DNA of 64,000 nt, from positions 32,001 to 96,000 of the IMG/VR virus record IMGVR_UViG_3300037140_000076; one strand, written 5' to 3'. Under the pieces are notes generated by a model. The model searched no databases, had not been told where the DNA came from, and saw only the letters and a list, made by a program, of their open reading frames with translations. A program made the translations under genes and the position numbers. Position 1 is the first letter of the stretch. Each line of letters starts with the position of its first letter. Source of the stretch: a virus. Positions 28,711 to 56,127 of this stretch are shown one piece after another.

Positions 28711-28902
28711 TTAAAATAGTAGAGAGTCAAAGAGGTACGGATACGTGAAGACTATATTTCCCAATCTTTATAGTTATTTCCCGTTGCAACAGTAATAACA
28801 CCTCCAGTTTGTCGGAAGCTTTTTTGATTGGTACATCTCGGACACCGTTTCGACCACGCCCATGATCAGTGGGTTTGTGCGGTTCTTCATCTACTATTTT
28901 AA
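28711..28902 (-). ncRNA. unclassified ~190-nt structured RNA
   Basis: 13-bp terminal inverted repeat TTAAAATAGTAGA/TCTACTATTTTAA enclosing several hairpins; no ORF. Confidence 0.5.
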
Positions 28903-29061
28903 AAAAGTTAAAAAATAAGTCCCTTTCCCTTCACTATCCCAGGGTGGTTAATAAGGACTTATTTTTACGTACGCTGTTTTAGGCTACAGATACCTCATAC
29001 GTAACCATTGCCGTTAGAATATAGACCGATTTATGATACTATACAACGGTTGGATTTTTCG

Positions 29062-29131
29062 AACATCCAAGAGGAATCGAACCCCTGCTTCACCCTACAC
29101 GGGTGCGTCCTCCCACTAGACCATAGATGTT
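29062..29131 (-). tRNA. tRNA-like element with aberrant anticodon loop (identity undetermined)
   Basis: acceptor AACATCTA/TGGATGTT, D-arm, T-arm AGGGG-TTCGATT-CCTCT; anticodon arm CACCC-GTGTA-GGGTG. Confidence 0.5.
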
Positions 29132-40656: not shown

Positions 40657-42054
40657 TTAAATGTATATTCGCATTATGCTCAATAAGAACCTTTTAAATT
40701 TTACCCTGGTTGTTTTCTCATATGGTGCTATCTTATTGACAGTCTTATACTTAAAAGATAAATCGAAGAAATGAAAAAAATCCTGATTGATTTCACAACT
40801 GTTTTAAAAAAGAAAGATAGATTTACAGATCATGCCGGGGTTGAACATAAGATAAAAGAAGTAACGTATGCCCCCTCCAACGGGACGGTATATATAGAGA
40901 CGACAGAAGGGAAGATGATTAACCTTACTAAAGCGTTGATTAACAAAGATATATTATGTCTACTCAAGAAATGATTCGTTGGATACCTTTAGAAGAATAT
41001 AAAATAATGCAACAATCTGAAGAGGAATGGAAAAAGATGAATTATAGAATATTCATGAGTACTTTTTGGGGTATGGAAATACCTAAACCATTAATAAATA
41101 AAGAGTTATGATTAACACCCTTCTTTGTTTTTTAGGTATTCATAGATGGCATTCCGTTAGAAATGGACCTAAAATCCCTTTTTCAAGATGTAGATATATT
41201 TTTTGTACTCGTTGCGGAAAACAAAAATAACACACTGATAAATAAAGACTTATGAACTTTGCAAAACTCTTCTCTATTGATGACGATACCCAGGTGCTTG
41301 TTAGGCTCGAAGATGGGTTTGATGAAACCACCGGAGAAGAAATTACAAACGTTACTCAAACAACTGAGTACAACGGAGTTACAATGGAATGTTCTAAAGG
41401 ATTCCTGGAAGTAAAAGACGCTGAAGAATATTTTAAAAAGTTCTCCCTGGCTCTTGCCATTACTTTTCATGAGGATGCCCGGAAGGTTATTTTCGATATG
41501 GTGGAGGAAGGCTGATTTGGAATTGTGAAGGTTTTGTTATAATTTTATACCTATGCCTGAATTAACCTATGCCTTTCAAATCCTCACTGCAACTGATCTG
41601 ATGGTCCTTCAAGACGATATGAACGATCTTGGTATATGTGGATACACAGCGGTTGGGGGAGTGACCTATTCCTTCTTTGATCCAAACAGCCCTAGTGGAT
41701 TTACCTACGTCCAGGTTATGAAATTAATAATAAAGAACTTTTAACTTTTTGTTAACTTTAGATTGATTATATTCGCATTATGAAAGAACATAGATCAAAA
41801 CAAATGGGACCTGGAGGCGGTGGATGGCTTTCAGACCTGGAAAGAGATCAACCTATAAAATCAGGAGCAACACCCCTTACATTACCAGGCACCACCTCAA
41901 CAAGGTTTGAAGTTTTCTTTCAATTCAATGATGATGCACCGGTTAGGTTTGCAGAAACAAGAACAGGACTTAGGATAGACCTAACTGAAGATGGTCAAGA
42001 CGTTGAATGGAGGGATGGGGATAAGAGATTTAGAATTTTTTTAAAAAAGAAGAC

Positions 42055-42501
42055 ATGACAAAAATAAAACCAGACGTCACCGAAACTAACCCATTCGTTA
42101 TCTATCCCCCCGATTCCAATGTAATTTTAAATCTTCCAAAACCAAATTCTGTATCTAATTTTGAAAAGGATTTGCTTGAAAAGTTTAACGAATATGATGG
42201 TCCTAAAAGCACCCGTGGTAAAGTACCCGATGAAATTCAACCTCTTAAAGATAAAGAAAATATTTTTCAAGATACCCATGCTATAAACAATTCAATGGTT
42301 TTGCAAAAATTAGGATTTGAAGAAAGATCAGCTACCCAATGGTATCACCCAGTTCTTGGAGATGATATGGAACATAACTGGCTTCATTTTGATACTCAAT
42401 ATGATGATACTGAATCTATTGTACCAAAGATTTATAAAACAGGATTTGTACAAGGTCAGAAAAATATTCGGATGGGTATTAAAAAGGTACTCGATATTTA
42501 A
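42055..42501 (+). CDS. hypothetical protein
   Basis: 148-aa ORF in operon. Confidence 0.6.
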   Translation: MTKIKPDVTETNPFVIYPPDSNVILNLPKPNSVSNFEKDLLEKFNEYDGPKSTRGKVPDEIQPLKDKENIFQDTHAINNSMVLQKLGFEERSATQWYHPVLGDDMEHNWLHFDTQYDDTESIVPKIYKTGFVQGQKNIRMGIKKVLDI

Positions 42502-42843
42502 AAACAACAATTACATGGCAGCTAAAAAAGAAACTAGAAAATCATTTTGTATTACCGCTAAGATTATTATCACAACAAGTATTGAAGTTTATGCTAATAC
42601 GTTTACTGAAGCTGTGGATTTATCAAGAGGTTTAGGAGTAGATAATTTTGTTGAAGTCATTGGTGATCACATTGATAGTGAATTCGGCATAGAAGGTATT
42701 TCTGCTTTTCCGAATACCGCAACACTTTAATTATGTACGAAGACTTATTAAAGGACCCTCCCGACACTGAGGAAGATATTCCAGATATACTTCAACCCCC
42801 AGGCCCCGCTGTTCCGGTGGCTGGATTATGTTTTGCTGAAAGA

Positions 42844-42951
42844 TTATAACAAAACTCAGTGATAATTATCATTGGATTTAGTGATAAAAATAAAATTATA
42901 ACAAAATTTTGTTATAAAATTTGGTAGATTAAAAAATTCTTCTTAGGTTTG
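42844..42951 (+). promoter_or_regulatory. three 22-bp operator-like palindromes plus a TTTG-N20-TAGGTTTG promoter
   Basis: TTATAACAAAATTTTGTTATAA (42896-42917) abuts the -33 box. Confidence 0.7.
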
Positions 42952-42969
42952 TAGTCTAAATGATTTTTT

Positions 42970-43116
42970 ATGGTAGTAGGTATAATAATTGGTTTCGTTG
43001 CTGGCTTTGTAATTGGAGCACTTGTGTTCAGAAACAATACTACAAAAGCTAATGCCGTAATAGCAACTGTTCAGGCAGATACTGCAACCGTAGTAGCTGA
43101 CGCTAAAAAAGTTTAA
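42970..43116 (+). CDS. small single-pass membrane protein
   Basis: MVVGIIIGFVAGFVIGALVFRNN..., 48 aa, directly after the promoter. Confidence 0.6.
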   Translation: MVVGIIIGFVAGFVIGALVFRNNTTKANAVIATVQADTATVVADAKKV

Positions 43117-43147
43117 TCAAATGGGTGGAGACGCTTAAAATATTACA

Positions 43148-43282
43148 ATGCAACAATTTACAATGATAGTGGATAATAGAATTAATGCCGGAGGCGAAAA
43201 TCGTCTTTCAGGGATTCTATTGTAACATCATTAATAATATGTTAAACCTTTAGAACCCTGGATAATAAATCCAGGGTTTTTT
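43148..43282 (+). promoter_or_regulatory. attenuator-like leader 1 (leader ORF, antiterminator, terminator) before tRNA array 1
   Basis: ORF MQQFTMIVDNKN; CAGGGATTCTA (43209) can pair with TAGAACCCTG (43251); terminator AACCCTGGAT-aataa-ATCCAGGGTT-TTTT. Confidence 0.65.
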
Positions 43283-43287
43283 ATTTT

Positions 43288-43359
43288 AGACAATTAGCTC
43301 ATCGGGAGAGCGGAGCCTTTACACGGCTTGCGTAGAGGGTTCAATTCCTTCATTGTCTA
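43288..43359 (+). tRNA. tRNA-Val(TAC)
   Basis: cloverleaf; anticodon arm GAGCC-TTTACAC-GGCTT. Confidence 0.9.
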
Positions 43360-43415
43360 CATAATGACCGTTATAACGGACATTCTCCCCAGGAAATGAC
43401 CGCTATAACAAACAT

Positions 43416-43486
43416 TTTCCTCTCGTTCAATGGAAGGACGACTGCCTTCTAAGCAGTGAATAAGTGTTCGACTCACTTGGGGAAAA
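43416..43486 (+). tRNA. tRNA-Arg(TCT)
   Basis: ACTGC-CTTCTAA-GCAGT; T-loop TTCGACT. Confidence 0.9.
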
Positions 43487-43491
43487 CATAA

Positions 43492-43565
43492 GGCTTGTTA
43501 GCTCAGTGGCCCAGAGCGGGACTTTGTTAAAGTTCGGGTCCTTGGTTCGAATCCAAGACGAGCCT
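43492..43565 (+). tRNA. tRNA-Asn(GTT)
   Basis: GGACT-TTGTTAA-AGTTC; T-loop TTCGAAT. Confidence 0.9.
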
Positions 43566-43612
43566 CAAAATTAATTTGGATATGTCACAAACTTTATGTA
43601 TATTGTGTCATA

Positions 43613-44014
43613 ATGAAAATTTGTACACGATGTAAAGATAAAAAAGAACTATCTGAGTTCTATAAAAGTCCAGGCAGTAAGGATGGTTATCGCATTTATT
43701 GTAAAACATGTTATAGTAAGTTACGAAAGAGGACATATAATTTTCAAAAAGCAAAGAAATTATTTTTAAAAAGTAAATACAAAATAACTTTAGAAGAATT
43801 GGAAGTTTTATTTTTAAAACAAAAGAAAAAATGTGCTATTTGTAATGAACCAAATGAAGAAGTGTCTACTAGAAGTGGGTTACATATAGACCATGATCAT
43901 GTTACAGGAAAAGTCAGAGGTTTACTTTGTAAAAACTGTAATCAATTGATAGGCAATGCTAAAGATAATATAAATATTTTAGAAAATAGTATAAAATATT
44001 TATTATGTTCTTAA
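43613..44014 (+). CDS. endonuclease VII-family homing endonuclease
   Basis: CTRC...CKTC N-terminus; Q...CAIC...LHIDHDH.TGKVRGLLC..CN..IG. Confidence 0.9.
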   Translation: MKICTRCKDKKELSEFYKSPGSKDGYRIYCKTCYSKLRKRTYNFQKAKKLFLKSKYKITLEELEVLFLKQKKKCAICNEPNEEVSTRSGLHIDHDHVTGKVRGLLCKNCNQLIGNAKDNINILENSIKYLLCS

Positions 44015-44811
44015 CATTCACAGAAGAAGGGCATTCGTATGAGTCAATTCCAGCCGTTTCCTGGACTTCTGTGACTAAATTAATAGAAAGCTACTGCAAT
44101 CCTTTTGATGAGGAGGATCAAGCTCTGAGGAGTTCACAGAATATGAATTCAAAATGGTTTGGGATGGACCCAGTGGAGATTATCAAACTCTGGAAGGCTG
44201 AAAACCTTCGTTCCACTGATGCCGGAACCTGGGTCCACAACAAATGGGAAAAAAATGTTAGCTCTTTAAAGCACAAAGAGTGGGAAGGAAAGAAATTAAA
44301 AGTTTTTCCTGGAAAATGGGAAGGAGAAACTAAAATTGCACCGGCCCAGGAACTTGAAGAAGGGGTTTACCCTGAACATATTATATATAATGAAAATCTT
44401 CAGGTGTGTGGACAGGCTGATATTGTTAATGTTAGGGATGGTTTTGTAGATGTAATTGATTATAAGACTAGTAAGGAGATTGAGGACCACTCTTATGGAT
44501 TCAAGTATGGAAATGCGAGTATGATGTTGGAACCGGTGAACCATTTAGAGGATTGCAACCTTTCTCATTATGTTCTTCAGCTTGGTATCTATATGAGGCT
44601 CATCCTGTTAAAGAATCCGGCTCTGAAACCTGGTAAACTGATCCTCATTCATGTAAAAATGGATATTAATGAGCTTGATCAATATGGATTTCCTATCCTA
44701 AAAAGGACAAAAGAAAACGGATATAAAATTAAAAGAACAAAAAATTATAATATAAAATACATTGAGAATGAAGTTCGTAGTGTATTAAAAGATCATTATT
44801 TAAAATTGTAG
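44005..44811 (+). CDS. PD-(D/E)XK (Cas4-like) exonuclease
   Basis: GTWVH, CGQAD, IDYKTS, Y.LQLGIY. Confidence 0.85.
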   Translation: MFLTFTEEGHSYESIPAVSWTSVTKLIESYCNPFDEEDQALRSSQNMNSKWFGMDPVEIIKLWKAENLRSTDAGTWVHNKWEKNVSSLKHKEWEGKKLKVFPGKWEGETKIAPAQELEEGVYPEHIIYNENLQVCGQADIVNVRDGFVDVIDYKTSKEIEDHSYGFKYGNASMMLEPVNHLEDCNLSHYVLQLGIYMRLILLKNPALKPGKLILIHVKMDINELDQYGFPILKRTKENGYKIKRTKNYNIKYIENEVRSVLKDHYLKL

Positions 44812-44956
44812 GGTGGCGAAATTGGCAGACGCAACCGCTTGTCTCGCGGTCGTGGATAAGGAAATAGATAGTAGATAGACGGTTGACCAGCAATGAATTA
44901 ACTTCTTTTGTCTCCTGTTGAATCCCCACTTAATGGTTCGAATCCATTTTCTACAG
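44807..44956 (+). ncRNA. tRNA-like RNA (GTC loop) with a ~88-nt variable arm
   Basis: acceptor TGTAGGG/TTCTACA-G, D-arm GCG-AAATTGGCAGA-CGC, ACCGC-TTGTCTC-GCGGT, T-arm AATGG-TTCGAAT-CCATT. Confidence 0.65.
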
Positions 44957-45076
44957 CAATTGATCAGTATGTTGCAGATAGAATCTGATCTGGCCCTACG
45001 CACTGCAAAGCGTTGAGGGAGCGCGTCCGGGATAAGTAGACCTGGTAAGACTACGCTAGGAAAAAGTCTTTTATAT

Positions 45077-45151
45077 TGCGGGATAGAGTAAATGGATAAC
45101 TCGAAGGTCTCATAAGCCTTGTCTATGTCGGATCGTACCCGGCTCCCGCAA
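45077..45151 (+). tRNA. tRNA-Met(CAT) (initiator-like; Ile2 not excluded)
   Basis: TGCGGGA/TCCCGCA; AAGGT-CTCATAA-GCCTT. Confidence 0.8.
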
Positions 45152-45262
45152 CGGTGGTGTCTTGAACGTAGTCCTGGGAAACAACAAGGGAAGTACAACT
45201 AACGGGTTACTGAAAGGGCTTTGTAGTTCAAGAATTAAACAGGTAAAGCTGGCCGCTACTTT

Positions 45263-45336
45263 GCGCCATACGCATTCCGGTAGTGTGCCTGGCTTCCAAC
45301 CAGGATGAGTCGGTTCGATTCCGACATGACGCACCA
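45263..45336 (+). tRNA. tRNA-Gly(TCC)
   Basis: CCTGG-CTTCCAA-CCAGG; encoded CCA. Confidence 0.88.
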
Positions 45337-45416
45337 GGACAAGACGGAGGTTCGAATCCTCCCGGCTATGTATCCGTAATTGGGTGACGCAGTAGTTTAG
45401 TGGTTAGAATATGTCC
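45337..45416 (+). ncRNA. circularly permuted tRNA-like RNA (T-arm, closed acceptor, D-arm)
   Basis: GGACA...GGAGG-TTCGAAT-CCTCC...hairpin...TAGTTTAGTGGTTAGAAT-A-TGTCC. Confidence 0.55.
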
Positions 45417-45419
45417 AAT

Positions 45420-45491
45420 GCTCCTTTCGTCTACTGGCTAGGACATCACTCTTTCCAAGTGATTAAGACAGATCGAAACTGTCAGGGAGTA
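45420..45491 (+). tRNA. tRNA-Glu(TTC)
   Basis: TCACT-CTTTCCA-AGTGA. Confidence 0.82.
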
Positions 45492-45497
45492 CAATAT

Positions 45498-45572
45498 GGT
45501 ACATTAGGGGAGTCCGGAGTCCCTGCCTCACTGTCTATGAGGAGATCATCGGTTCAAATCCGATATGTACTG
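45498..45572 (+). tRNA. tRNA-Asp(GTC)
   Basis: CCTCA-CTGTCTA-TGAGG; discriminator G. Confidence 0.88.
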
Positions 45573-45629
45573 CAAGATGGAACGTTTAGTACGTCTGAAC
45601 ACGAAATAATGGTTCCCCATCTTTTCTAT

Positions 45630-45704
45630 ATTCGGATAACTCAGTCTGGTCAGAGGGCGACTCTTATAAGGTCGCAGTCAGTGGTTCAAATCCACTTCCG
45701 AATA
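45630..45704 (+). tRNA. tRNA-Ile(TAT)
   Basis: CGACT-CTTATAA-GGTCG. Confidence 0.85.
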
Positions 45705-45776
45705 CTGGTTCGTATAAAGGCACGAATTGTTCGAAAGATTCGTGTAAATACGTAATTTGCAAATTGCAAATTATAC

Positions 45777-45850
45777 TGACCTATGGCGCAGCTTGGTAGC
45801 GCAGCACTCTGATAAGGTGAAGGTCCCTGGTTCAAATCCAGGTGGGTCAA
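45777..45850 (+). tRNA. tRNA-Ile(GAT)
   Basis: GCACT-CTGATAA-GGTGA; canonical D- and T-arms. Confidence 0.9.
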
Positions 45851-45893
45851 CTCTGTTCATATTTTTTCTCTGTTCACGAAAAGTGAACAACCT

Positions 45894-45964
45894 GGGCCAG
45901 ATCCCGAAGGCAGGGCATCTCGCTTGCACCGAGAATGAAGCGGGTTCGATTCCCCATGTGTCCA
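45894..45964 (+). tRNA. tRNA-Ala(TGC), irregular acceptor stem
   Basis: TCTCG-CTTGCAC-CGAGA; G3:U70 present. Confidence 0.7.
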
Positions 45965-46035
45965 CTTTTTTCCCAAATTTGGAAATGTGAAAAATTTTCA
46001 CTATATTGAATTCTTCACATCCAAATTTAAATAAT

Positions 46036-46533
46036 ATGTTAAAGTTCATCCTAGACAACCCAGAGAAGACACTTTTCGGTAAGATTAGAAACATTGGTTT
46101 TGTATTTGCACTGGAATTAATTTACTTAAGTATCATTGTTTTTTTATTGAAACAACTAGATCCCTTTGATCTATATACTCTTATGCATCAATATAGTTTA
46201 CCACATGTTATAGACGCTAATGCTATTGGGATATTTTTCTTTGCTTGTATTTGGGCACCCCTATGGGAAGAAGCGGCTTTCAGGTATGCTCCTATAACGA
46301 TTGCCAAGAACTTTGGACCTCAATTTTTGTTCCCGGTTATAATAATTAGTAGTGTTTTATTTGGTTGGGGTCATGGATCTGGACCTGTTAGTCTTCTTAT
46401 TCAGGGAGTTGGGGGATTCTTGTTTTCCCTGCTTTATATTAAAAATGGTTTTAGTTATAAATCTTCAGTAACTGCCCACTTCCTTTGGAACCTTTCTCTT
46501 ATGTTCCTCCTTCCTGTTTTAATAGCAAATTAA
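46036..46533 (+). CDS. CPBP (CAAX/Abi) family intramembrane metalloprotease
   Basis: APLWEEAAFR, FGWGH, HFLWN; multiple TM segments. Confidence 0.88.
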   Translation: MLKFILDNPEKTLFGKIRNIGFVFALELIYLSIIVFLLKQLDPFDLYTLMHQYSLPHVIDANAIGIFFFACIWAPLWEEAAFRYAPITIAKNFGPQFLFPVIIISSVLFGWGHGSGPVSLLIQGVGGFLFSLLYIKNGFSYKSSVTAHFLWNLSLMFLLPVLIAN

Positions 46534-46584
46534 ATTTTGTAATATCAATTCTTTTAAGTACTTTAGGGTCATAATTTAGTTATT

Positions 46585-47364
46585 ATGGCCCTAATTGCTA
46601 TGGCGGTATACTCAACTGAGGAGAACGGAAAAAATGAATATCTGGATAAAACTCTTCAATCATTGGAAGAGACTGTAGATTTTACTAAACATCGTCTAAT
46701 TCTATCTGTTAATGCTTATACAGCAGAAACTCTTTTGATATTCAGAAGATTTAAAGGCATGTTTGAATTGATTTTCAATAAAGAAAATCTTGGAACCGCT
46801 GAAGCAATTAACCTTGCTTGGAAAGATCAATGGCCGGGAGAAAATCTCATTAAGATGGATGATGATGTTGTCATAAATGTTAATGGATGGGTTGATCGCA
46901 TGGAAGAAGCTATTCAGAGAGATCCAACGATAGGTCAATGTGGTCTAAAAAGAAGAGATTGTACAGAAACTCCCTGGAATCCCGACCCCTTTTATAAATC
47001 AAAACTTGAAATGCTTCCTCACTCCCCCGGTGAGAAATGGATTGTAGTAGAAGAAGTATCTCACGTTATGGGGACTTGTGTCATGCACTCTGCTGCACTA
47101 CTTCACAAAGTAGGATACCTTTATCAACCAAAACTTTATGGATTTGATGATTCGTTTATGAGTCTTCGGTCCCGAATTGCGGGATTTAGAAATGTATTTT
47201 TGCCTGGTATAGATATTGAGCATATTGATAGAGGAGATACCGGGTTTCAAAAATGGAAAGAGAAACATGCTGGAGAGTGTTGGCAAGAATATATGCAAGT
47301 GGTAAGAGATTATACATCAGGTAAAAAAAGCGTTTATTATAATCCATTCGAAAATGATAAATGA
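46585..47364 (+). CDS. glycosyltransferase family 2
   Basis: NLGTAEAIN, KMDDDV, YGFDD...R...GF.N...IEH. Confidence 0.85.
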   Translation: MALIAMAVYSTEENGKNEYLDKTLQSLEETVDFTKHRLILSVNAYTAETLLIFRRFKGMFELIFNKENLGTAEAINLAWKDQWPGENLIKMDDDVVINVNGWVDRMEEAIQRDPTIGQCGLKRRDCTETPWNPDPFYKSKLEMLPHSPGEKWIVVEEVSHVMGTCVMHSAALLHKVGYLYQPKLYGFDDSFMSLRSRIAGFRNVFLPGIDIEHIDRGDTGFQKWKEKHAGECWQEYMQVVRDYTSGKKSVYYNPFENDK

Positions 47365-48058
47365 TACAATAGTTCTTACTGCAATATATCATGAGTTTTG
47401 GGGAACAGAACAGTTTAGAAAATCTGTTGAGAGAGTAGGTCTGGATGTTTATAATGTATTTCCTGAAAACACCCCATATAGAGGAAACGGTTTTATTTAT
47501 CAATACTTTTACAAAGCCTTTTTAGATCTTAAAGATAAATATAAAACAGTTATTTATTCGGATGGAGCAGATACAGTTTTTCAAAAAGCATTTGTACCAC
47601 CAACTGATAGAATAATTTATTCTGTTGAAAAAGCAATATGGCCTCCTGCCGAACGCTTCCCACATCTTAAAGTTCTTTATGATAACTATTATAACAAACA
47701 CTGGCGTAGAAATGATTGGCCTTGGAAATATTTGAATGGGGGAAACTGGTGTGGTCCCATTCATCTATTAATTGAATGGTATGAACGATACGGATTGAAA
47801 GATTTGACAGGAGATATAAATGGTCAGAGAGAGCAAGCCGAAGCTTTTATGAAAGCAGATGCAGATGGTTTTCCAATTAAGTTCGATCATAATTGCGAAT
47901 ATTTTCAGACAACAGGTTTTGAAAATCAAGGAGATTTCAGTTTAGCGGAAGATGGAAAATCAATTATAAATAATTTAACAGGGACGATTCCTTGCGTTCT
48001 TCATGGGAACGGGCGAACTCCGATGAATGCCATATATAATAGATATAACGTACAATAA
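47354..48058 (+). CDS. PLOD/LH3-type glycosyltransferase domain protein
   Basis: YSDGADTVF, EKAIWP, YLNGG..G, D..CEYFQT, PCVLHGNG. Confidence 0.75.
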   Translation: MINDTIVLTAIYHEFWGTEQFRKSVERVGLDVYNVFPENTPYRGNGFIYQYFYKAFLDLKDKYKTVIYSDGADTVFQKAFVPPTDRIIYSVEKAIWPPAERFPHLKVLYDNYYNKHWRRNDWPWKYLNGGNWCGPIHLLIEWYERYGLKDLTGDINGQREQAEAFMKADADGFPIKFDHNCEYFQTTGFENQGDFSLAEDGKSIINNLTGTIPCVLHGNGRTPMNAIYNRYNVQ

Positions 48059-48059
48059 A

Positions 48060-49115
48060 ATGACGAACAAAGAAAAAGCAAAACGACAAAGAGACCGAAG
48101 AAAAACCTATTCATTGTCAAAAAGAAAAAAAATAGCAAAGCAGGTGAAGGCGTATGCCGAAGCAAATAAAGAAAGACTTTCTTTTTTAAAAGCAGAAATG
48201 TATAGAATAAATAGAGAGTATATTTTACACTTCAAAGCAACACATCCTTGTGTAATTTGTGGACAGACTGATCCTTTCGTTTTAGACTTTGACCATTTAG
48301 ATCCTTCTAAAAAGGAAGCAACGGTTGCAAATATGTTAGGTAGAACAGCTTCTCTAGAAAAAATAAAAAAAGAGATAGCCAAATGCCAGATATTGTGTGC
48401 TAATTGTCATAGAAGAAAACATTTTTATGAAAAGAACAAATACAATTTTAAACAAAATATTGTTTTAATCGGAGGCGGTAATCATGTTCAGTACTGTATT
48501 GATATAATTAAAAAACAAAACAAATACAATATTGTCGGTATCATTGATTCAGTTAAAGATATTGGAGAAATTGTATACGATTATCCTGTCATAGGAAGAC
48601 AAAAAAATATTGTTGAACTTTCAAAACAATATGGGTTTGAAAGTGGTATAATTACTGTTGGAGATAATTGGGCAAGATATAAAATATATGGAGATATTAT
48701 TGAGGCTTATCCATCATTTATGTTTGTAAACGCAATTCATCCTTCAGTATTAATAGGCAATAATGTAAAGATAGGTAAAGGAGTAATAGCAATGGCGGGT
48801 GTAATATTTAATCCTGGAGCAAATATTGGAGATTTTACTTTCTTTGCAACAGGTGCGCAAGTAGAACACGATTGTATAATAGAACATTTTGCAAGTGTAT
48901 CAGCGGGGTCTATTCTTGGTGGTCATGTTCATATAAAAGAGTTTGCTGCTATTACTCTAGGGGTAACAATAATTGATCGTCTTACTATTGGATGGAATAC
49001 AGTAATTGGATCAGGGTCTCTTGTAACAAAAGATATAGATGATAATGTGTTGGCATATGGAAGCCCTGCGAAAGTAATAAGAATAAGACAACAAGGAGAA
49101 AGATTTTTAAAATAA
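48060..49115 (+). CDS. HNH domain fused to a NeuD/PglD-family sugar acetyltransferase
   Basis: N-terminal CVICG..D..VLDFDH...CANCHRR; C-terminal IGGGNH, AIHPS, hexapeptide repeats, GSPAK. Confidence 0.85.
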   Translation: MTNKEKAKRQRDRRKTYSLSKRKKIAKQVKAYAEANKERLSFLKAEMYRINREYILHFKATHPCVICGQTDPFVLDFDHLDPSKKEATVANMLGRTASLEKIKKEIAKCQILCANCHRRKHFYEKNKYNFKQNIVLIGGGNHVQYCIDIIKKQNKYNIVGIIDSVKDIGEIVYDYPVIGRQKNIVELSKQYGFESGIITVGDNWARYKIYGDIIEAYPSFMFVNAIHPSVLIGNNVKIGKGVIAMAGVIFNPGANIGDFTFFATGAQVEHDCIIEHFASVSAGSILGGHVHIKEFAAITLGVTIIDRLTIGWNTVIGSGSLVTKDIDDNVLAYGSPAKVIRIRQQGERFLK

Positions 49116-49120
49116 TAAAT

Positions 49121-49912
49121 ATGTCACCATCCCACGCAATAGAATTAAACCATAGAGGTTATACTATTATACCAAATTTGATACCGCCTATTATTGTTGA
49201 TGGATTGAGATATGCGTTGAACTTTTCATTTGATAAACACAGACAGATACAAATTGATAATAATAATGATATAGTTACGGAAGGCGTTGCTCTACATGTT
49301 TTATTAGATAATAGAAGATTTATTGAATTCTTACAATATCTTATGTTTGATATTAAGTTGTATTCCTTTCTGGAAGAAAATTATTTTAAATCAAAATTCA
49401 TATTGAATTCGATGAGTGGCTTGAATAACTTACCAAACCAACCAAACTTTTCGTCCATAGTTCACCGTGATTTGAGATTTTATACTGGCGAAATACCAGT
49501 CATGATAAATGCCCTTGTGATGGTTGACGAATTCACTGAAGATAATGGTCCCACCTTGTTATTACCATATTCTCATATTGATTTCGAAGAAAAACCAACC
49601 AATGAATACTTTCGAAGAAGTTCAGTGAAAGCTCTCGGTGAAGCCGGTAGTGTTTTATTATTTAATGCAAACGTTTGGCACGCATCTAGCTTAAATACTT
49701 CTCGTAACGGAAGAAGAGCATTACCAATAACATTCACTAAATCACTTATAAAGCAGTTATTGGATTATCCCAGGGCTTTAGGATACGATAGAATGGAAAG
49801 CTTTAGCGAACCAATGCAACAGCTTCTTGGGTATCATGCCCGTGTACCAGCCAACTTAGATGAATGGTATCAACCTTTTGATAAACGATTTTATAAAAAA
49901 AACCAAGATTAA
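49121..49912 (+). CDS. PhyH-family Fe(II)/2-oxoglutarate dioxygenase
   Basis: GY.II.N, HRD, DEFT.DNGPT.LLPYSH, GSVLLF...WH....N.S...RR. Confidence 0.88.
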   Translation: MSPSHAIELNHRGYTIIPNLIPPIIVDGLRYALNFSFDKHRQIQIDNNNDIVTEGVALHVLLDNRRFIEFLQYLMFDIKLYSFLEENYFKSKFILNSMSGLNNLPNQPNFSSIVHRDLRFYTGEIPVMINALVMVDEFTEDNGPTLLLPYSHIDFEEKPTNEYFRRSSVKALGEAGSVLLFNANVWHASSLNTSRNGRRALPITFTKSLIKQLLDYPRALGYDRMESFSEPMQQLLGYHARVPANLDEWYQPFDKRFYKKNQD

Positions 49913-50170
49913 AATAAACCATATGCCAATATTAATTTCTCGAAAACAGAATATAGTTCGATCATATACTTTTGAACTTAATCCAATAGAAACTCAAAAA
50001 TTTGAAGATGAGATTTTGAGTAATTTTTGGGATGCAACCAAAATTCCTGAAGACGAAAGAGCAGAGTTCAAAGTAACGTATACTATAGATTTTTATAAAA
50101 AACCAGTAGAAGAAGAACCCCAACCCCAGGATGGGTCACATATTATACTAGGATTACCTTCTATCTAATA

Positions 50171-50340
50171 TTTGGTAATTTCAATTATTTTACATATATT
50201 TGTTTTATGAAACATATCAATTCATATTATTCACTGAGTCTACTCTTATCGTCTTACGATACGGACCTGGGATAATATTGAATTAACCGAACTGATTCGG
50301 AAAAGTTATTACCCTGGGATTTTTATCCTGGGGTTTTTTG
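50171..50340 (+). promoter_or_regulatory. promoter plus attenuator leader 2 before the Leu/Ser/Tyr tRNA array
   Basis: TTTG-N20-TATATTTG; leader ORF 50207-50275; terminator ACCCTGGGAT-tttt-ATCCTGGGGT-TTTTT (50311-50339). Confidence 0.8.
50207..50275 (+). CDS. leader peptide MKHINSYYSLSLLLSSYDTDLG
   Basis: 12 consecutive Ser/Tyr/Leu codons matching the downstream tRNAs. Confidence 0.75.
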   Translation: MKHINSYYSLSLLLSSYDTDLG

Positions 50341-50344
50341 TTTT

Positions 50345-50418
50345 AGGGATGTGCTGCAATTGGTAGATAGCTACGCCTCAAAAGCGCATGTGTGTGGGTT
50401 CGAATCCCTCCTTCCCTA
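50345..50418 (+). tRNA. tRNA-Leu(CAA), short variable region
   Basis: TACGC-CTCAAAA-GCGCA; T-loop TTCGAAT. Confidence 0.78.
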
Positions 50419-50447
50419 CTAAAAGCGTTACTAACGCTTTTCAGTAT

Positions 50448-50527
50448 ACCTTCGTGACTTATACGAAATGGCACAGTTACCGGTCTTAGAAACCGGGTCC
50501 TTGTGGGTTCGACTCCCACCGAAGGTA
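50448..50527 (+). tRNA. tRNA-Leu(TAG)
   Basis: CCGGT-CTTAGAA-ACCGG; ACCTTCG/CGAAGGT. Confidence 0.82.
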
Positions 50528-50564
50528 CAATGTTTCCCTTATTAATGAGGTAAACAATTTATAA

Positions 50565-50644
50565 CCCTCTGTGGCTTATAGAAATAGGTACACTTAACCG
50601 ACTTAAAATCGGAGCTTGTCATGGTTCGAATCCATGCAGGGGGA
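50565..50644 (+). tRNA. tRNA-Leu(TAA), weak D-arm
   Basis: CCGA-CTTAAAA-TCGG; CATGG-TTCGAAT-CCATG. Confidence 0.75.
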
Positions 50645-50649
50645 CATAC

Positions 50650-50736
50650 GGAAGGCCCCAGTTGACTGAGGTACACGGTCCTGAACACCGCTAGGAGGCT
50701 AATACCCTTGTAAGAGTTGGACTCTCTTGCTTTCCG
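50650..50736 (+). tRNA. tRNA-Ser(TGA)
   Basis: GGAAGGC/GCTTTCC-G; CGGT-CCTGAAC-ACCG; long variable arm. Confidence 0.78.
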
Positions 50737-50854
50737 CTTTATATCTTTTAACATATAAAATCAGTAATATATTACCGATTATATCTAATAACGTATAATA
50801 AGGTAGAATATTTTGCAACAATCGGCAATTTATTACCGATTTTGCCGAAAGTTT

Positions 50855-50938
50855 GGAAAGTTAATTAGCAAGAGCTAACCCTCCCCGCTAAGGAGTGGGA
50901 CCGGGAAACTGGTTGTGGTTCGTGTCCACAACTTTCCG
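50855..50938 (+). tRNA. tRNA-Ser(GCT)
   Basis: GGAAAGT/ACTTTCC-G; CTCC-CCGCTAA-GGAG; long variable arm. Confidence 0.8.
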
Positions 50939-50986
50939 CAAGAGGAAACATTTGGAAGTTTCCTCTTTATTTCGTATGTTTGTAAA

Positions 50987-51433
50987 ATGAAAAAGATATG
51001 TTCAAAATGCAATATTGAAAAAGAAGTACAAGATTTCAATAAACGCACAAACAGTAAAGACGGATATGATCCAAGATGTAGAACTTGTACAAAAGAACGA
51101 GATGTTTTAAGATATACTAAAAATCCCAAACTTTTTAAAGAAAGGGCAAAAGTTAAAAACACTTTTATAAGAGATAGAAACAGACAATTTTTAATTGAAT
51201 ATTTAATTGATAAATCATGTATTGATTGTGGAGAAACCGATGCTGTTGTATTGGAGTTCGATCATATAGAACCTTCAACAAAAATTGATTGTATTTCAGA
51301 AATGATTCCACGATCAAGTATTGAAAATATTAAAACTGAATTAAATAAATGTGAAATAAGATGTGCAAATTGTCATAGAAGAAAAACAGCTAAACAATTT
51401 GGCTGGAAAAGAAAACACCTGGAATTATGTTAA
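50987..51433 (+). CDS. HNH homing endonuclease
   Basis: CSKC...CRTC; CIDCGE...LEFDH...CANCHRRKT; own promoter at 50951-50982; start moved to MKKIC. Confidence 0.88.
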   Translation: MKKICSKCNIEKEVQDFNKRTNSKDGYDPRCRTCTKERDVLRYTKNPKLFKERAKVKNTFIRDRNRQFLIEYLIDKSCIDCGETDAVVLEFDHIEPSTKIDCISEMIPRSSIENIKTELNKCEIRCANCHRRKTAKQFGWKRKHLELC

Positions 51434-51457
51434 GATTAGATAAAACTTTACTCTTAT

Positions 51458-51528
51458 TGATTGAATACCAGGGCAGTAGGCACTGTCTGTAAAACAGAGG
51501 CACGTAGGTTCGAGTCCTACTCAGTCAA
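51458..51528 (+). tRNA. tRNA-Tyr(GTA), short variable region
   Basis: CTGT-CTGTAAA-ACAG; GTAGG-TTCGAGT-CCTAC. Confidence 0.75.
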
Positions 51529-51532
51529 CAAA

Positions 51533-51751
51533 TTATAACTGAATTTTGTTATAAATTTGGAAATTTGAAAAAGTATTATTAAGTTTGCAGTTAAGATTAT
51601 GAAACAGACTATCAACACGCGATTTTTTTGGCATCAACCGACCCCTCAAGGTCCAAGGGCTAAAGTTATGCGTGATACAGATATAGGTTAAATAATCTCT
51701 TTTCTGCTTGCAACTTTTCAACCCTTGATTTTTCTAAACCGAGGGTTTTTT
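51533..51751 (+). promoter_or_regulatory. operator, promoter and attenuator leader 3 before the Pro/Thr/Phe/Gln/His/Arg/Trp tRNA array
   Basis: 22-bp palindrome, TTTG-N20-TAAGTTTG, leader ORF 51599-51691, terminator AACCCTTG...CGAGGGTT-TTTT. Confidence 0.8.
51599..51691 (+). CDS. leader peptide MKQTINTRFFWHQPTPQGPRAKVMRDTDIG
   Basis: 11 consecutive codons TRFFWHQPTPQ matching the downstream tRNAs. Confidence 0.75.
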   Translation: MKQTINTRFFWHQPTPQGPRAKVMRDTDIG

Positions 51752-51755
51752 ATTT

Positions 51756-51831
51756 CTAGTAATGGAGGAGTCCGGCCATCCTCGCGTGCCCTGGAAGCAT
51801 GAGAACCCAGGTTCAAATCCTGGTTACTAGA
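51756..51831 (+). tRNA. tRNA-Pro(TGG)
   Basis: CGTGC-CCTGGAA-GCATG. Confidence 0.85.
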
Positions 51832-51836
51832 CAAAT

Positions 51837-51908
51837 TCCTCTTAAGCTTTAATGGTGAAGCTCCAGTTTTGTAAACTGGTGAATGGGGATCGTTACCTCA
51901 AAGAGGAT
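51837..51908 (+). tRNA. tRNA-Thr(TGT)
   Basis: CCAGT-TTTGTAA-ACTGG; atypical T-loop ATCGTTA. Confidence 0.8.
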
Positions 51909-51992
51909 CGAAGCCGGTTACCAAAATGTAAAAAAGCCGCCAGAACGTGTCTGGTTACTTGTTAAGACAAGTTGTAAAAAAGTTTGGGTTAT

Positions 51993-52067
51993 GTGTCTTG
52001 GGCAGGTCTGGTGACATTGCATCCGTTTGAAGAACGGACTAACAAGGTTCGATTCCTTGAGGATACG
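51993..52067 (+). tRNA. tRNA-Phe(GAA)
   Basis: TCCGT-TTGAAGA-ACGGA. Confidence 0.82.
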
Positions 52068-52072
52068 CTTAT

Positions 52073-52144
52073 TCCTGGATCGTATAACGTGTAGTACAGC
52101 CGTCTCTGACACGGTTAGCAATTGTTCGACTCAGTTTCCGGGAA
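52073..52144 (+). tRNA. tRNA-Gln(CTG)
   Basis: GCCGT-CTCTGAC-ACGGT. Confidence 0.82.
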
Positions 52145-52149
52145 CTTAA

Positions 52150-52220
52150 ACCCCTTTAGCATAAAGGTAATGCTGGTGGCCTTGACCCACCAGAAGTTCG
52201 GTCGGTACGAGCAGGGGGTT
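52150..52220 (+). tRNA. tRNA-Gln(TTG)
   Basis: GGTGG-CCTTGAC-CCACC; atypical T-loop GTCGGTA. Confidence 0.75.
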
Positions 52221-52222
52221 CT

Positions 52223-52292
52223 GTGAATCTAGTTCAATGGTAGAACGGCTGGCTGTGAACCAGGCAATTAGGGTTCGATCCCCGGTTTCACA
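52223..52292 (+). tRNA. tRNA-His(GTG)
   Basis: CTGG-CTGTGAA-CCAG; D-arm GTTC-AATGGTA-GAAC. Confidence 0.8.
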
Positions 52293-52338
52293 CAACGCAT
52301 GAATTTTTAATAAAAATTCATGCAAAATATTAACATAA

Positions 52339-52410
52339 CCTCCTTTCGTTCAACGAATAGGACCTCTGGCAACGAACCAGAAAATAAAGGTTTGATTCCT
52401 TTAGGGAGGT
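52339..52410 (+). tRNA. tRNA-Arg(ACG)
   Basis: TCTGG-CAACGAA-CCAGA. Confidence 0.8.
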
Positions 52411-52415
52411 CAATT

Positions 52416-52484
52416 ACGTGCCAGGCTAAGGCAGCCAAGCAAACTCCAAATCTGTAGGAGATAGTTCGATTCTATCGGTGCGTG
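52416..52484 (+). tRNA. tRNA-Trp(CCA)
   Basis: loop CTCCAAA; GATAG-TTCGATT-CTATC; imperfect anticodon stem. Confidence 0.7.
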
Positions 52485-53048
52485 CAAATTATAACAAAAA
52501 GCAATTATAATTACTTTTTGTGATAATATTCACACAAAATTTTGTGATAAATGTTGGAAGTGTCAAAAGTATTGTTTTACTTTGCACCCAACTTTCACCA
52601 GTAAAGGACACGCCACCACGAAAAAACAATGATATGAAGTGGCGCAACTACGTCTTGGCTTTTTTTGGGGGAACCTACGGAGGGGGGCCTCACCCCTCTC
52701 ATATTATTGATTTATAATACGTTAAATGATTACCGGGTAATTTACTGGGCCTGGTAAAGCTTATAATTTGGTTATGTGCTTTGAATTACATATATTTACA
52801 GAGGTAAAAAGCACAAAAAATATAAAAAGAGATTCAAGGGGATCATTTAAGATATTACCATCACAAAAATTCCTATCTGGTTATAATCAAAAAACGTAAT
52901 CTGCGTCCATTTAAAACGTTTAAGCAGATGGCAGTGAATTAGGAAACACTGTTGCCCGGTGGTATAAAAGATGCAATTTATTGCATCTTTTTTTATTTAA
53001 CATAGTCTTAACTTGGTTTTATAATAAAAAACAGTTACATTTGCAAGT

Positions 53049-53396
53049 ATGAGAGCGTTGAAGATAGAAAAAAAGACTGATTCGAAAACTCAACAGATAA
53101 AGCTTGTATTATCAATCATTTGTCTATTGAATAATATTACTCTCTCAGAAACAGATTATATATCTCTTGCTTTTTTTATTCAGTATAAAATGAGCCACAA
53201 AACCGATGATTTGATAATCAAGAGTGGGGTGGTCAAGAACATGGACGTTTTAAGAAACGTTAAAACCAGGTTATGTAAGAAAGGATTTTTAAAAAGAGAT
53301 CCTAAAGAATACAAAACCTATGATTTGAACATGAGTGCGGGGGAGTTTAATTGGGAAGACAATGATATTCGATTAATTATAAAACTCAATAATTGA
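53049..53396 (+). CDS. hypothetical protein, possible winged helix
   Basis: promoter TACATTTG upstream; LRNVKTRLCKKGFL. Confidence 0.65.
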   Translation: MRALKIEKKTDSKTQQIKLVLSIICLLNNITLSETDYISLAFFIQYKMSHKTDDLIIKSGVVKNMDVLRNVKTRLCKKGFLKRDPKEYKTYDLNMSAGEFNWEDNDIRLIIKLNN

Positions 53397-53746
53397 AAAA
53401 TATTGACTATATAATTTTGAAGACCTCCAGGGACATGGATATTCCTAAAGAAAAGGTTAAGATAATAGTGGATACCTATTGGGATGGAGTGTATAAAAAA
53501 CTTTTAAATTTAGATTCTACAACTGTTTTTATAAGGAATGTGGGGCTGATAACAATAAGTAAATTTAAATTAAGAAAGTTTATTTATAAATTTATTGATA
53601 AAATAAGATTTTTAAATAAAGGAGATAATTATTCTGAACAACAAAAACAAAAACTCAATCCTCTTTATATTAAAAAATTGAGGAAAGCTCTTTCTCAAAG
53701 AAACATTATTGCTAAAGACTACGCTAAAAAATTTGGAAACACATGA
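53393..53746 (+). CDS. HU/IHF-like DNA-binding protein
   Basis: I....S....IPKEKVKIIVDTYW...VFIRNVG.I pattern; position upstream of terminase. Confidence 0.5.
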   Translation: MKNIDYIILKTSRDMDIPKEKVKIIVDTYWDGVYKKLLNLDSTTVFIRNVGLITISKFKLRKFIYKFIDKIRFLNKGDNYSEQQKQKLNPLYIKKLRKALSQRNIIAKDYAKKFGNT

Positions 53747-54132
53747 GTTTAAGAAAAACTTTTGGTGAGTATTTGGACATGGTGAAGAATGGTTTTAAAA
53801 ACAAAGATAAGATCATTGAAGCAATGCAGGTCTCTGCTATGATAAAGAACGGGAAGATTGGAAATGGTTTGGAGGTTACTAATGAGGCTGTTGCTGAAAT
53901 ACTTAAAAGGAAAGATATTTGTGCTGAGTGTCCTTTCAATAGTAGAAACACAAATAAAGAAACTTATAAATCTAATTTACCCTGGGAGCATTGTACTCTT
54001 TGTAAATGCAGGATAGGATATGATGATAGCAAAGAATATTGTTTATCTTGTGTATGTGGAGCCGAAGCCTGGAATGAAATGAATCCTGATATGGAACCGA
54101 TGGAAGTGAAATGGACAGCATTTAAAAACTAA
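53743..54132 (+). CDS. Cys-rich Zn-binding phage protein
   Basis: RKDICAECPF...CTLCKC...CLSCVCG. Confidence 0.7.
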   Translation: MSLRKTFGEYLDMVKNGFKNKDKIIEAMQVSAMIKNGKIGNGLEVTNEAVAEILKRKDICAECPFNSRNTNKETYKSNLPWEHCTLCKCRIGYDDSKEYCLSCVCGAEAWNEMNPDMEPMEVKWTAFKN

Positions 54133-55235
54133 AAATAAATATTATGTGCGTAGTTAGTATGGTAGGAGATCATTACTCCGATAAATTTAAGGATGATTGG
54201 TATAAAAGGTTTGTACCTTGGACTCCTCCTTCTACTTCCCCTTATACGCCAAATCCTTTGAGTATACCAACATTTATTCCAATGGCAACAAAGGAAGAGT
54301 TTGATGTTTTAAAGAAAGAAGTTGAAGAAATGAAAAAACTTTTAATTAGAGCAAAGATATACGATGAAAAAAACAATGAACCAGATTGCGAAATAGATGC
54401 CAAGATAGAGCTTCTTAAAAAGTTTGCAGAGTTGGTTGGTATAGACTTAAGTGACATTTTTAAAAAAACAACATGAAAAAAAGCACAAAGATTATTTTAT
54501 TTGTAATATTTCTTGTAAGTATCCTTTTTTATAGTATCTTTGTATCAGCACAAAACCCAATAAAGAAGTTTCATCCTGCGACTTATGAATCTGATAGTGT
54601 TGTTTATGTTCGTGGTGATCAAACTATTTCTGTAAATGATAGCATTGATGTAATTTTTACAGATACTGCAAACTTAATAAGAATTGTTAATATAACTAAA
54701 AAAACAATTCTTAATGTTGAAATAGTACACGCGGTACGTTCAGAAGTTATTGAATCATATAATGAGAAAGGAGAAAAAGAAAATTTAACTGTAGGTTGGT
54801 TTTATTGTTTAGTAAACGATCAAGAGCAAATGGTATTTACAACAATATCTCTTCAAGATGGAGAGATCGCGGGGGTTGGTATAGGCACCGAAACATATTT
54901 TACAGTCATGTCATTAAAAAGAAAGAAACAATACGATAAAAAACTTAAATAAACAGTATGACCACAGAAAGAACGCTTCCAGGTAAGCCTGATAAGCAAA
55001 GAATGCAGACCACACAGCAGATTTTTCATAATCTTCTGGAGATCGTGGAACTTTATCCTCAGTATTCTGTGGCCCAACATGTGGCTGCAATCAGTCGAAG
55101 AAAAAGTTCAACCGGTAAAGATTTATTTCATTGGTCTGATGATGAACTTCTTAAAAAGATCGAAGCTCACAAGACAGAACTCGAAGGAGAAGACATTATG
55201 AATTATGATGATGGTGAAATTGATTAAAATATTTT

Positions 55236-55592
55236 ATGACCATAAAGAAAACGTTTTATATAGACATTTATAGTTGTAATGTGCATGTAACGGCGGCTGA
55301 TGATGTAAGACGATCAATAAATTATTATTTAAAAAAACACGGAGAAAAAATCATAGAGTATGATGTAGAAGGACTTTTTTTCGTTCCTATAGATCAAGTT
55401 TCTGATTATTATTTATTTTTTAATCTTAAAGGTTTAGATGTAAATACTTTGAATCATGAAATATCTCATCTTATTGAAGAAATTTTAATACATCGTCATA
55501 TTAAAGCATCAGGAGAACAGAGAGCGTACTTACACGGATCTACATGTGAAAGAATATATAATTTCTTTAAAAAGAAAAAATGTATTAAATAA
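55236..55592 (+). CDS. HExxH motif protein
   Basis: LNHEISHL...EQRAYL. Confidence 0.6.
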   Translation: MTIKKTFYIDIYSCNVHVTAADDVRRSINYYLKKHGEKIIEYDVEGLFFVPIDQVSDYYLFFNLKGLDVNTLNHEISHLIEEILIHRHIKASGEQRAYLHGSTCERIYNFFKKKKCIK

Positions 55593-55593
55593 C

Positions 55594-55669
55594 GGCCAGG
55601 TACCCAATGCTGGACGCGGGGTTAGTCTGCAAAACTTACTTAACACCAGTTCGATTCTGGTTCTGGTCT
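55594..55669 (+). tRNA. tRNA-Cys(GCA)
   Basis: GGCCAGG/TCTGGTC-T; AGT-CTGCAAA-ACT; ACCAG-TTCGATT-CTGGT. Confidence 0.8.
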
Positions 55670-55681
55670 CAAAAAACAATT

Positions 55682-56125
55682 ATGCCAGCAAAGAAAAAAA
55701 CAAATTTTGTATCTTACGAACTTGCTCGTCTTGATAAATATCTAAAACAACTTACTTCTTATCTTGATGCCCACCCTCCCGATAAAATGGAAGATAGAAT
55801 AGAGTGGATTGAGACTCCCAGAGGTGCAGAAATTCCAAAAGTTATTTCTTCAATAGAAACACAACTCAAAGTGTTTATGTCTACACTGGAAAAACTTCCA
55901 AAACTTTTATCTGACGTTAATAATCTTCGTAAAGAAGTAGAGGGAGGACCAAAAGAAATTGAATTAAGAGGAGGAGCAGAACGCCCAGGATTTATGGATA
56001 ATGATGAACAAACCGGAGATGAATTTGAAGATATTCCAAACGACAAAACACTTCCCCCTTCCACCACAGAAGAAATTAAGGACCCGGAATTTGATGATGA
56101 AACGTACTGGCAGGAGCCTGATTAA
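55682..56125 (+). CDS. hypothetical protein, candidate terminase small subunit
   Basis: starts at MPAKKK after tRNA-Cys; immediately upstream of TerL. Confidence 0.5.
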   Translation: MPAKKKTNFVSYELARLDKYLKQLTSYLDAHPPDKMEDRIEWIETPRGAEIPKVISSIETQLKVFMSTLEKLPKLLSDVNNLRKEVEGGPKEIELRGGAERPGFMDNDEQTGDEFEDIPNDKTLPPSTTEEIKDPEFDDETYWQEPD

Positions 56126-56127
56126 TT

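Follow-up and report, generated by a model that had tools for sequence, protein, structure and literature searches.

A phage leader peptide that lists the tRNAs encoded behind it, and a probable ribosome-mediated attenuator of phage tRNA genes

We provide evidence that leader 1, a short open reading frame (ORF) ahead of a block of phage tRNA genes, probably serves as a ribosome-mediated transcription attenuator of the trp/ilv type that gates those genes, with a peptide that names the amino acids of the tRNAs behind it. The conclusion is carried by an intact ORF, by three alternative helices and their geometry, by statistics and by the comparative co-variation of leaders with their tRNA arrays. 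The attenuator is one of three in the genome and part of a family-wide system. A first-pass annotation of the same DNA had proposed attenuation as in trp, with a peptide naming the amino acids that the tRNAs downstream carry, and this idea is now strongly supported; taken as a whole, the observation recorded there is partly confirmed and its interpretation partly supported. The source genome is that of a phage, assembled as one contig of 112,374 bp with a tmRNA and about 24 tRNA genes in total. The window is the whole stretch that was analyzed, a 64,000-nucleotide part of this genome, and coordinates refer to it unless another locus is named.

The leader 1 frame and the array behind it

The features needed for the argument on reading frame and composition are the following.

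43148-43225, plus strand: leader 1 ORF, 25 codons plus TAA (43223-43225), product MQQFTMIVDNRINAGGENRLSGILL
43163-43204, plus strand: sensor run, codons 6-19 of leader 1, M I V D N R I N A G G E N R, encoded by ATG ATA GTG GAT AAT AGA ATT AAT GCC GGA GGC GAA AAT CGT
43288-45965, plus strand: array 1, the tRNA block that leader 1 would regulate
Array 1, first part, in order: Val(TAC), Arg(TCT), Asn(GTT), with tRNA-Val starting at 43288
43613-44811: interruption of array 1 by an EndoVII/HNH gene and a PD-(D/E)XK nuclease gene
Array 1, second part: Met(CAT), Gly(TCC), Glu(TTC), Asp(GTC), Ile(TAT), Ile(GAT), then a weak Ala(TGC)
45895-45965: the weak tRNA-Ala(TGC) candidate, called by ARAGORN only at the 80% threshold, with a poor acceptor stem
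50207-50275: leader 2, MKHINSYYSLSLLLSSYDTDLG, before Leu/Leu/Ser/Ser/Tyr tRNAs
51599-51691: leader 3, MKQTINTRFFWHQPTPQGPRAKVMRDTDIG, before Pro/Thr/Phe/Gln/Gln/His/Arg/Trp tRNAs

The zero frame of leader 1 runs uninterrupted from the ATG at 43148 to the TAA and contains MIVDNRINAGGENR. The first-pass annotation had held this frame to be ambiguous, with an ORF that stopped at 43186, a matching frame gained by removing one base after GAT, and a read-through of the TAA into CRRRNR as the other option. The local sequence is GAT AAT AGA ATT AAT GCC: the TAA that was meant (43183-43185) lies out of frame in an ORF that is open from 43148 to 43225, the zero frame already gives the match, and there is no in-frame stop to read through. 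The supposed ambiguity is a misreading in which one base was dropped, not a property of the DNA, and the open in-frame ORF rules out the frameshift, indel and stop-codon read-through readings. The three explanations once offered for it, an assembly indel, a decayed leader and a recoding-dependent leader, are all unsupported because the frame problem does not exist. Positions 43148-43195 are identical in a second assembly from IMG/VR (L001, in which a neighbouring protein is 97% identical) and in a contig from run X6, an independent peat metagenome, and positions 43171-43342 are identical in a contig of another metagenome run (X5), with no indel in any of them; two further runs (X3 and X4) yielded no contigs covering the leader 1 stretch.

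Under default settings ARAGORN calls nine tRNAs in array 1. The tenth tRNA originally counted behind the leader, the Ala gene, appears only at the lowered threshold. This Ala(TGC) candidate, the would-be match of the leader codon GCC, looks degenerate, although its anticodon and T arms align with those of genuine tRNA-Ala genes from relatives. The array 1 spacers at 44812-45076, 45153-45262 and 45337-45419 hold tRNA-like pieces with GGTTCGAATCC T-arm motifs, none of which is called by ARAGORN or by the Rfam tRNA model, and the Met-Gly gap is 5 nt in L001 versus 110 nt in the window; these pieces may be degenerate tRNAs or insertions. Array 2 is split too, by an HNH-like ORF 5' of tRNA-Tyr (50915-51433). 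Elsewhere in the window, the stretch 28347-29130 (minus strand) holds a phage tmRNA (tag VKSKAERIAEGEAILASVFSEELELA) adjoining tRNA-Thr(TGT); the tmRNA is a second translation-rescue element of the genome.

All 14 residues of the sensor run fall within the array 1 isotype set. We ranked leader 1 against every ATG-initiated ORF of 15-40 codons in the six frames of the 112-kb genome (666 in all); it stands first for array 1 amino acids, has the longest run (14) and is the only one to hold all nine array 1 amino acids inside 13 codons, and leaders 2 and 3 each rank first among the same ORFs for their own array. Random 25-mers drawn with the amino-acid usage of the phage reach a run of at least 13 in 0.1% of trials. 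A second ORF with a good array 1 composition (2352-2399) lies antisense within a 362-aa gene and was taken as chance. At the level of codons, with Met, Trp and Ala left unscored, the entire ORF has 14 in-set codons that were scored, and array 1 anticodons can decode 12 of them under strict wobble, all but GGC and CGT; GCC in the sensor run is likewise not read by these anticodons under the same rule. Leader 1 offers one to three codons per isotype and no tandem run, and because of these low numbers its sensitivity to the loss of any single tRNA is uncertain.

Alternative helices and the predicted switch

The elements from which a switch could be built are listed below.

42920-42951, plus strand: Bacteroidota-type promoter-like site, TTTG-N24-TAnnTTTG, where the leader 1 transcript probably begins
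42970-43116, plus strand: ORF for a 48-aa small membrane protein, upstream of the leader and co-transcribed with it
43165-43229, plus strand: protector (1:2) hairpin, −20.4 kcal/mol; main stem AUAAUAGAAUU (43173-43183) with GAUUCUAUUGU (43213-43223), inner stem 43190-43197 with 43201-43208
43207-43219 with 43251-43262, plus strand: antiterminator (2:3), bulged A at 43214, −16.4 kcal/mol
43252-43284, plus strand: intrinsic terminator (3:4), 12-bp stem 43252-43263 with 43269-43280, loop AATAA, then a U-run, −17.4 kcal/mol

The same 32-nt promoter-like pattern stands directly 5' of leader 2 (50171-50202) and leader 3 (51556-51587), at distances of 4 and 11 nt from the respective ATG, and the mRNAs of these two leaders may therefore be leaderless or nearly so. 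The pattern occurs 17 times in the window, where 7.6 ± 2.3 occurrences would be expected, and the three sites before the leaders are putative promoters. The 48-aa ORF has a weak ZapG-like Pfam match, under the cut-off, and small hydrophobic ORFs of a similar kind lie 5' of leaders in four related loci (L001, L150, L008 and L009).

The antiterminator CAGGG-a-TTCTA (43209-43219) with TAGAA-CCCTG (43251-43260), and the terminator, with its core AACCCTGGAT/ATCCAGGGTT and U-run, are both present as the first-pass annotation had described them. Protector, antiterminator and terminator are mutually exclusive and of similar strength, and the main stem of the protector overlaps the diagnostic codons of leader 1. 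The whole leader fold lies well beyond shuffled sequences (z −4.9 to −5.2; 0/200). The U-run ends about 3 nt 5' of tRNA-Val (43288); therefore no separate promoter fits between them, and transcription can reach the tRNAs only through the terminator.

When the full-length leader 1 RNA is folded at equilibrium, the terminator is favoured at every masked ribosome position, and the switch must therefore be kinetic and co-transcriptional, as in trp. We accordingly modelled the RNA co-transcriptionally, cutting it before the 3' arm of the terminator and masking the A-site codon plus 13 nt as the ribosome. With no ribosome on leader 1, the protector holds region 2 and leaves the 5' arm of the terminator unpaired. 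The antiterminator forms when the A site is at codons 7-17, and it is lost when the A site is anywhere from codon 19 to the stop (codons 19-26). The leader 1 antiterminator has a ddG of −11.4 kcal/mol versus −3.1 ± 2.4 kcal/mol for shuffled partners (0/200). Across 19 leaders of the family, the antiterminators beat shuffles throughout (mean ddG z −3.75), and in 14 of the 19 the codon at which the antiterminator is lost lies no more than two codons from where the matching run ends, with a median difference of 0. The protector (1:2) helix is missing from some family leaders.

From these positions we infer translation of the leader, stalling on it, read-through that depends on the stall, and the direction of the effect in vivo. 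Transcription from around 42920-42951 would cross the 48-aa ORF and enter the 25-codon leader. If charged tRNA were scarce for any codon of the run, decoding would slow and the ribosome would linger in codons 6-19, occupying region 1 (43173-43183) and leaving region 2 (43207-43219) free to pair with region 3 (43251-43262) once the latter had been made; the terminator would be blocked, and RNA polymerase would proceed to tRNA-Val and the remaining block. If decoding were fast, the ribosome would move past codons 18-19, reach the TAA at 43223 and cover region 2, so that the terminator (43252-43280) would form and transcription would stop about 3 nt before the first tRNA. Were no ribosome present at all, the 1:2 hairpin would sequester region 2, and termination would again follow. 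The net effect would be a negative feedback through which the tRNA set is produced on demand.

A plainer account would assign the terminator to the 48-aa gene, treat the ORF as a product of chance and have the tRNAs made by leaky read-through or from an unrecognized promoter. Intrinsic terminators are common behind small genes, and a simple scan finds a modest excess of terminator-like sites in the region (17 vs. 9.8 ± 3.7). We nevertheless regard this account as very improbable, given the want of promoter space between U-run and tRNA, the first rank of the ORF among 666 and an antiterminator far stronger than shuffles. ORF, helices and composition are moreover conserved in relatives at only 36-38% TerL identity, and these comparative data already contradict it.

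Co-variation of leaders and arrays across the phage family

Orthologues of leader 1 with an open frame were found in several related phages, listed here with the identity of their TerL to that of the window phage.

L001:5305-5400 (REL97), TerL 98% (L004, same contig): leader MQQFTMIVDNRINAGGNEKSAPGNLLFDTRG, two extra tRNA-Lys before Val
L150:1305-1400, TerL 64%: leader MQTTRIIDNRNNAEVTIKCGSGFLLYDTDAC, array 1 begins with two tRNA-Lys
L094:1731-1883, minus strand: leader 1 orthologue
G002 (the record of L008), TerL 38%: leader MYLIVDNMICGNGRAKELAGAGIVLSSGDK, array 1 Lys Lys Cys Val Arg Asn Met Gly Glu .. Asp Ile Ile Ala
L010:3982-4059, TerL 36%: leader MSLLVIIAGRGAERIVKCGSGGSIC, array Lys Arg Arg Gly Glu Met Ile Val (Ala)

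Homologous leaders had been named in the first-pass annotation as the comparison that could refute its reading, and the orthologues do keep the leader 1 frame open, with compositions that match their arrays. A lysine codon occurs in the leader wherever tRNA-Lys genes occur (L001, L150, G002 and L010). The L010 leader 1 has neither D nor N; the Asp and Asn tRNAs of that phage belong to array 3, and both residues occur in the leader of array 3. Over five phages, leader and array agree on the presence of K, D and N in 5/5 and on that of C in 3/5. The solitary tRNA-Cys(GCA) of the window (55594-55670) lies directly 3' of a 118-aa ORF and has no terminator and no leader; in G002 the tRNA-Cys is within array 1, and Cys is in the corresponding leader.

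An alignment of the orthologues (A2) shows region 1 (ATAGTGGATAATAGAATT) and region 2 (CAGGGATTCTATTG) to be conserved, and with them both strands of the protector, whose helix is also present in the fold of the L150 orthologue; the terminators differ in sequence. In the form carried by L001 and X6, from peat metagenomes, the 98 nt at 43196-43293 are replaced by 331 nt (L001:5353-5683) that bring a leader tail with a Lys codon, an antiterminator, a terminator, tRNA-Lys(TTT) and tRNA-Lys(CTT). Because both lie within one 331-nt replacement, the Lys codon and the two tRNA-Lys genes amount to one event rather than two. The window form and the L001/X6 form are natural alternatives, a cassette polymorphism.

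A crucial step in widening the comparison was an alignment of TerL homologues (A1), needed because a single-protein locus search returned only a near-identical phage. It retrieved 65 IMG/VR loci and 80 metagenome loci, many of them with tRNA arrays upstream of TerL. Two other searches added no relatives: blastn against INPHARED phages gave one 82-nt tRNA-like match only, and a degenerate DNA motif of the IVDN core found 51 stretches in IMG/VR, with tRNAs downstream only in two already-known phages. We defined junctions by a terminator with its T-run ending no more than 25 nt before a tRNA and an ATG-ORF of 15-35 codons ending nearby. There are 31 such terminator-tRNA junctions, 30 of which have the short ATG-ORF, and the distance from T-run to first tRNA is 2-11 nt throughout.

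The 31 non-redundant leader/array pairs, from the phage and relatives with TerL 35-98% identical, show a close match: 193 of the 195 array isotypes occur in their own leader (Fisher odds ratio 94, p 3e-40). When arrays were permuted among leaders, 0/20000 permutations reached the observed match in the discovery set, in the independent metagenome set or when exchange was limited to within array classes, with p-values that overstate independence because leaders share descent. All of the 13 leaders that could be compared with other arrays of the same phage fit their own array better. Three leaders illustrate the range.

L009: array Pro Gln His; leader ..HPQPQH..
L058: array Trp Pro Asp Asn Gln His; leader ..NNQPSWNHQNTDD..
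L018: array Ala Asp Asn Trp Thr Arg Met Lys Ile Phe Val Gly Cys; leader MMMNNWFNIIDTAFATRNCGKVGI..

In L018, 13/13 isotypes fall inside one 24-residue run. Leaders also predicted tRNAs that ARAGORN misses by default and finds at a lowered threshold, namely a tRNA-Trp in L018 and a tRNA-Ala in each of L010 and L027. In the window, the lowered threshold brings out Leu(TAG) at 50457-50528, a Ser or Leu candidate at 50565-50645, Ser(GCT) at 50855-50939 and Trp(CCA) at 52416-52485, atypical tRNAs whose isotypes are those predicted by their leaders.

The family-wide data bear on whether the leader is read by ribosomes at all. The alternative helices alone could serve a riboswitch, and the leader RNA might bind tRNAs or a protein, in the manner of a T-box or of protein-mediated antitermination, with the reading frame incidental. 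We consider such a translation-independent switch distinctly improbable. A search of positions 42000-56500 against Rfam, at E values up to 1, gave no T-box match; its sole match was to RF01769, the Enterobacteria greA leader (43163-43287), at 36.7 bits against a gathering score of 60, and this below-threshold resemblance is one of shape only, a hairpin followed by a terminator at similar length. An ATG-initiated frame of 15-35 codons is kept at 30/31 junctions, the match to the array sits at the amino-acid level, across synonymous codons, and the geometry is ribosome-sized, the antiterminator strand lying about one footprint behind the last matching codon under the 13-nt mask (14/19).

A related debate concerns the nature of the signal. 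The attenuator could be real and yet sense amino-acid starvation, the overall rate of elongation or the availability of ribosomes, as a timing or coupling device. The match of codons to anticodons is a significant but modest enrichment (own-array anticodons can decode 214 of the 275 in-set codons, where 194.7 ± 5.9 would be expected; z 3.3), the leaders sample many synonymous codons (leader 2 has four Leu and four Ser synonymous codons), and in leaders that lack a protector the untranslated state would itself give read-through; all three points favour such a signal. A generic speed sensor, however, would have no need for an exact list of its own array's isotypes (193/195), no need to differ among the three arrays of one phage (13/13) and no need to follow tRNAs that shift from one array to another, as those of L010 do. 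We therefore hold a signal other than tRNA unlikely, and a shortage of tRNA, rather than amino-acid starvation or general slowing, is the signal that we infer.

Many leader C-termini, from different classes, share a similar motif (YDTDLG, RDTDIG, FDTRG, YDTDAC and DTDDKG; at 50258-50272, 51674-51688, L001:5383-5397 and L150:1380-1394). In L150 the bases of this motif form the outer part of the 1:2 helix; leader 1 of the window is without it. The motif may act at the RNA level or as a feature of the nascent peptide that slows termination.

Known systems and the meaning of the leaders

Leader attenuators that respond to more than one amino acid are classical, with ilvGMEDA (Ile/Val/Leu codons) and thr (Thr/Ile) standing beside trpL, hisL and pheL. 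To our knowledge, all described members of the trpL/hisL/ilvL type regulate genes for amino-acid biosynthesis or for synthetases. Every structural trait of that type which we looked for is found in leader 1, the nature of the regulated genes being the one exception. Like ilvGMEDA, thr and trpL, leader 1 combines a short ORF with diagnostic codons, here presumably translated, with a mutually exclusive protector, antiterminator and terminator; a ribosome terminating at its stop codon would mask the antiterminator strand, and a stalled one would permit read-through. Unlike ilvGMEDA and thr, the phage leaders precede tRNA genes (with two nuclease genes among those behind leader 1) rather than biosynthetic enzymes, are encoded by phages with Bacteroidota-like promoters and would exert feedback through tRNA abundance rather than amino-acid synthesis. 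The phage roster names 3 to 13 amino acids, mostly by one to three codons each, whereas leaders of the ilvGMEDA/thr type have tandem repeats of one to three amino acids.

In the pheST operon of Escherichia coli, the pheM leader governs attenuation of phenylalanyl-tRNA synthetase. The phage system would resemble it in applying leader-peptide attenuation to a component of the translation apparatus; pheST pairs a synthetase with a single-amino-acid (Phe) leader, and the phage pairs a tRNA array with a matching multi-amino-acid roster. T-boxes sense one uncharged tRNA by codon-anticodon and acceptor-end pairing, without translation. The phage leaders would share with them the sensing of tRNA status and the choice between terminator and antiterminator, and differ in being ORFs that cover up to 13 isotypes, with no T-box match.

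Why phages carry tRNA genes has been debated for decades, with codon compensation, host tRNA decay and escape from tRNA-cleaving defences as the main proposals. The control of these genes is hardly addressed in the literature that we searched: full-text searches turned up no description of tRNA genes controlled by a leader peptide or an attenuator, and two recent phage-tRNA papers are silent on attenuators and terminators. The published concept that comes closest is the trn operon of Anabaena sp. PCC 7120, whose long tRNA array responds to translational stress by induction (PMC8421152) and is controlled by the RHH repressor TrcR (PMC10272220). The Anabaena array is accessory, silent by default and turned on by impaired translation, as the phage arrays would be, and both are associated with nuclease genes, those in the phage arrays recalling the HNH homing endonuclease genes of the long cyanobacterial arrays (PMC8421152). 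Unlike the Anabaena operon, the phage leader implies no repressor, its sensor being a cis-encoded ORF, and the terms "attenuat," "leader peptide" and "terminator" do not occur in the 2021 Anabaena trn paper (PMC8421152).

As a tentative extension, which we think possible but would not favour, the leaders may be roster-type alarm sensors of an inducible counter-defence, with tRNA genes and reporter codons exchanged as cassettes. Host defences that target tRNAs, among them an anticodon nuclease, PARIS and a retron effector, provide the context (PMC10264068, PMC11464382, PMC11555353). A defence or a host shut-off that depleted one tRNA of the roster would stall the leader ribosome and turn on the replacement set. 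The 331-nt replacement, with its Lys tRNAs and leader tail, would be an example of such a cassette exchange.

If leader 1 works as the attenuator that we consider probable, the reach of classical attenuation would include tRNA genes and rosters of as many as 13 amino acids. The leader peptide supplies an annotation rule, since it predicts tRNAs overlooked by default ARAGORN, and from each leader it can be predicted which array should be induced by which tRNA depletions. A sensor encoded in cis and listing the isotypes of its own array would make tRNA supply a quantity that the phage measures.
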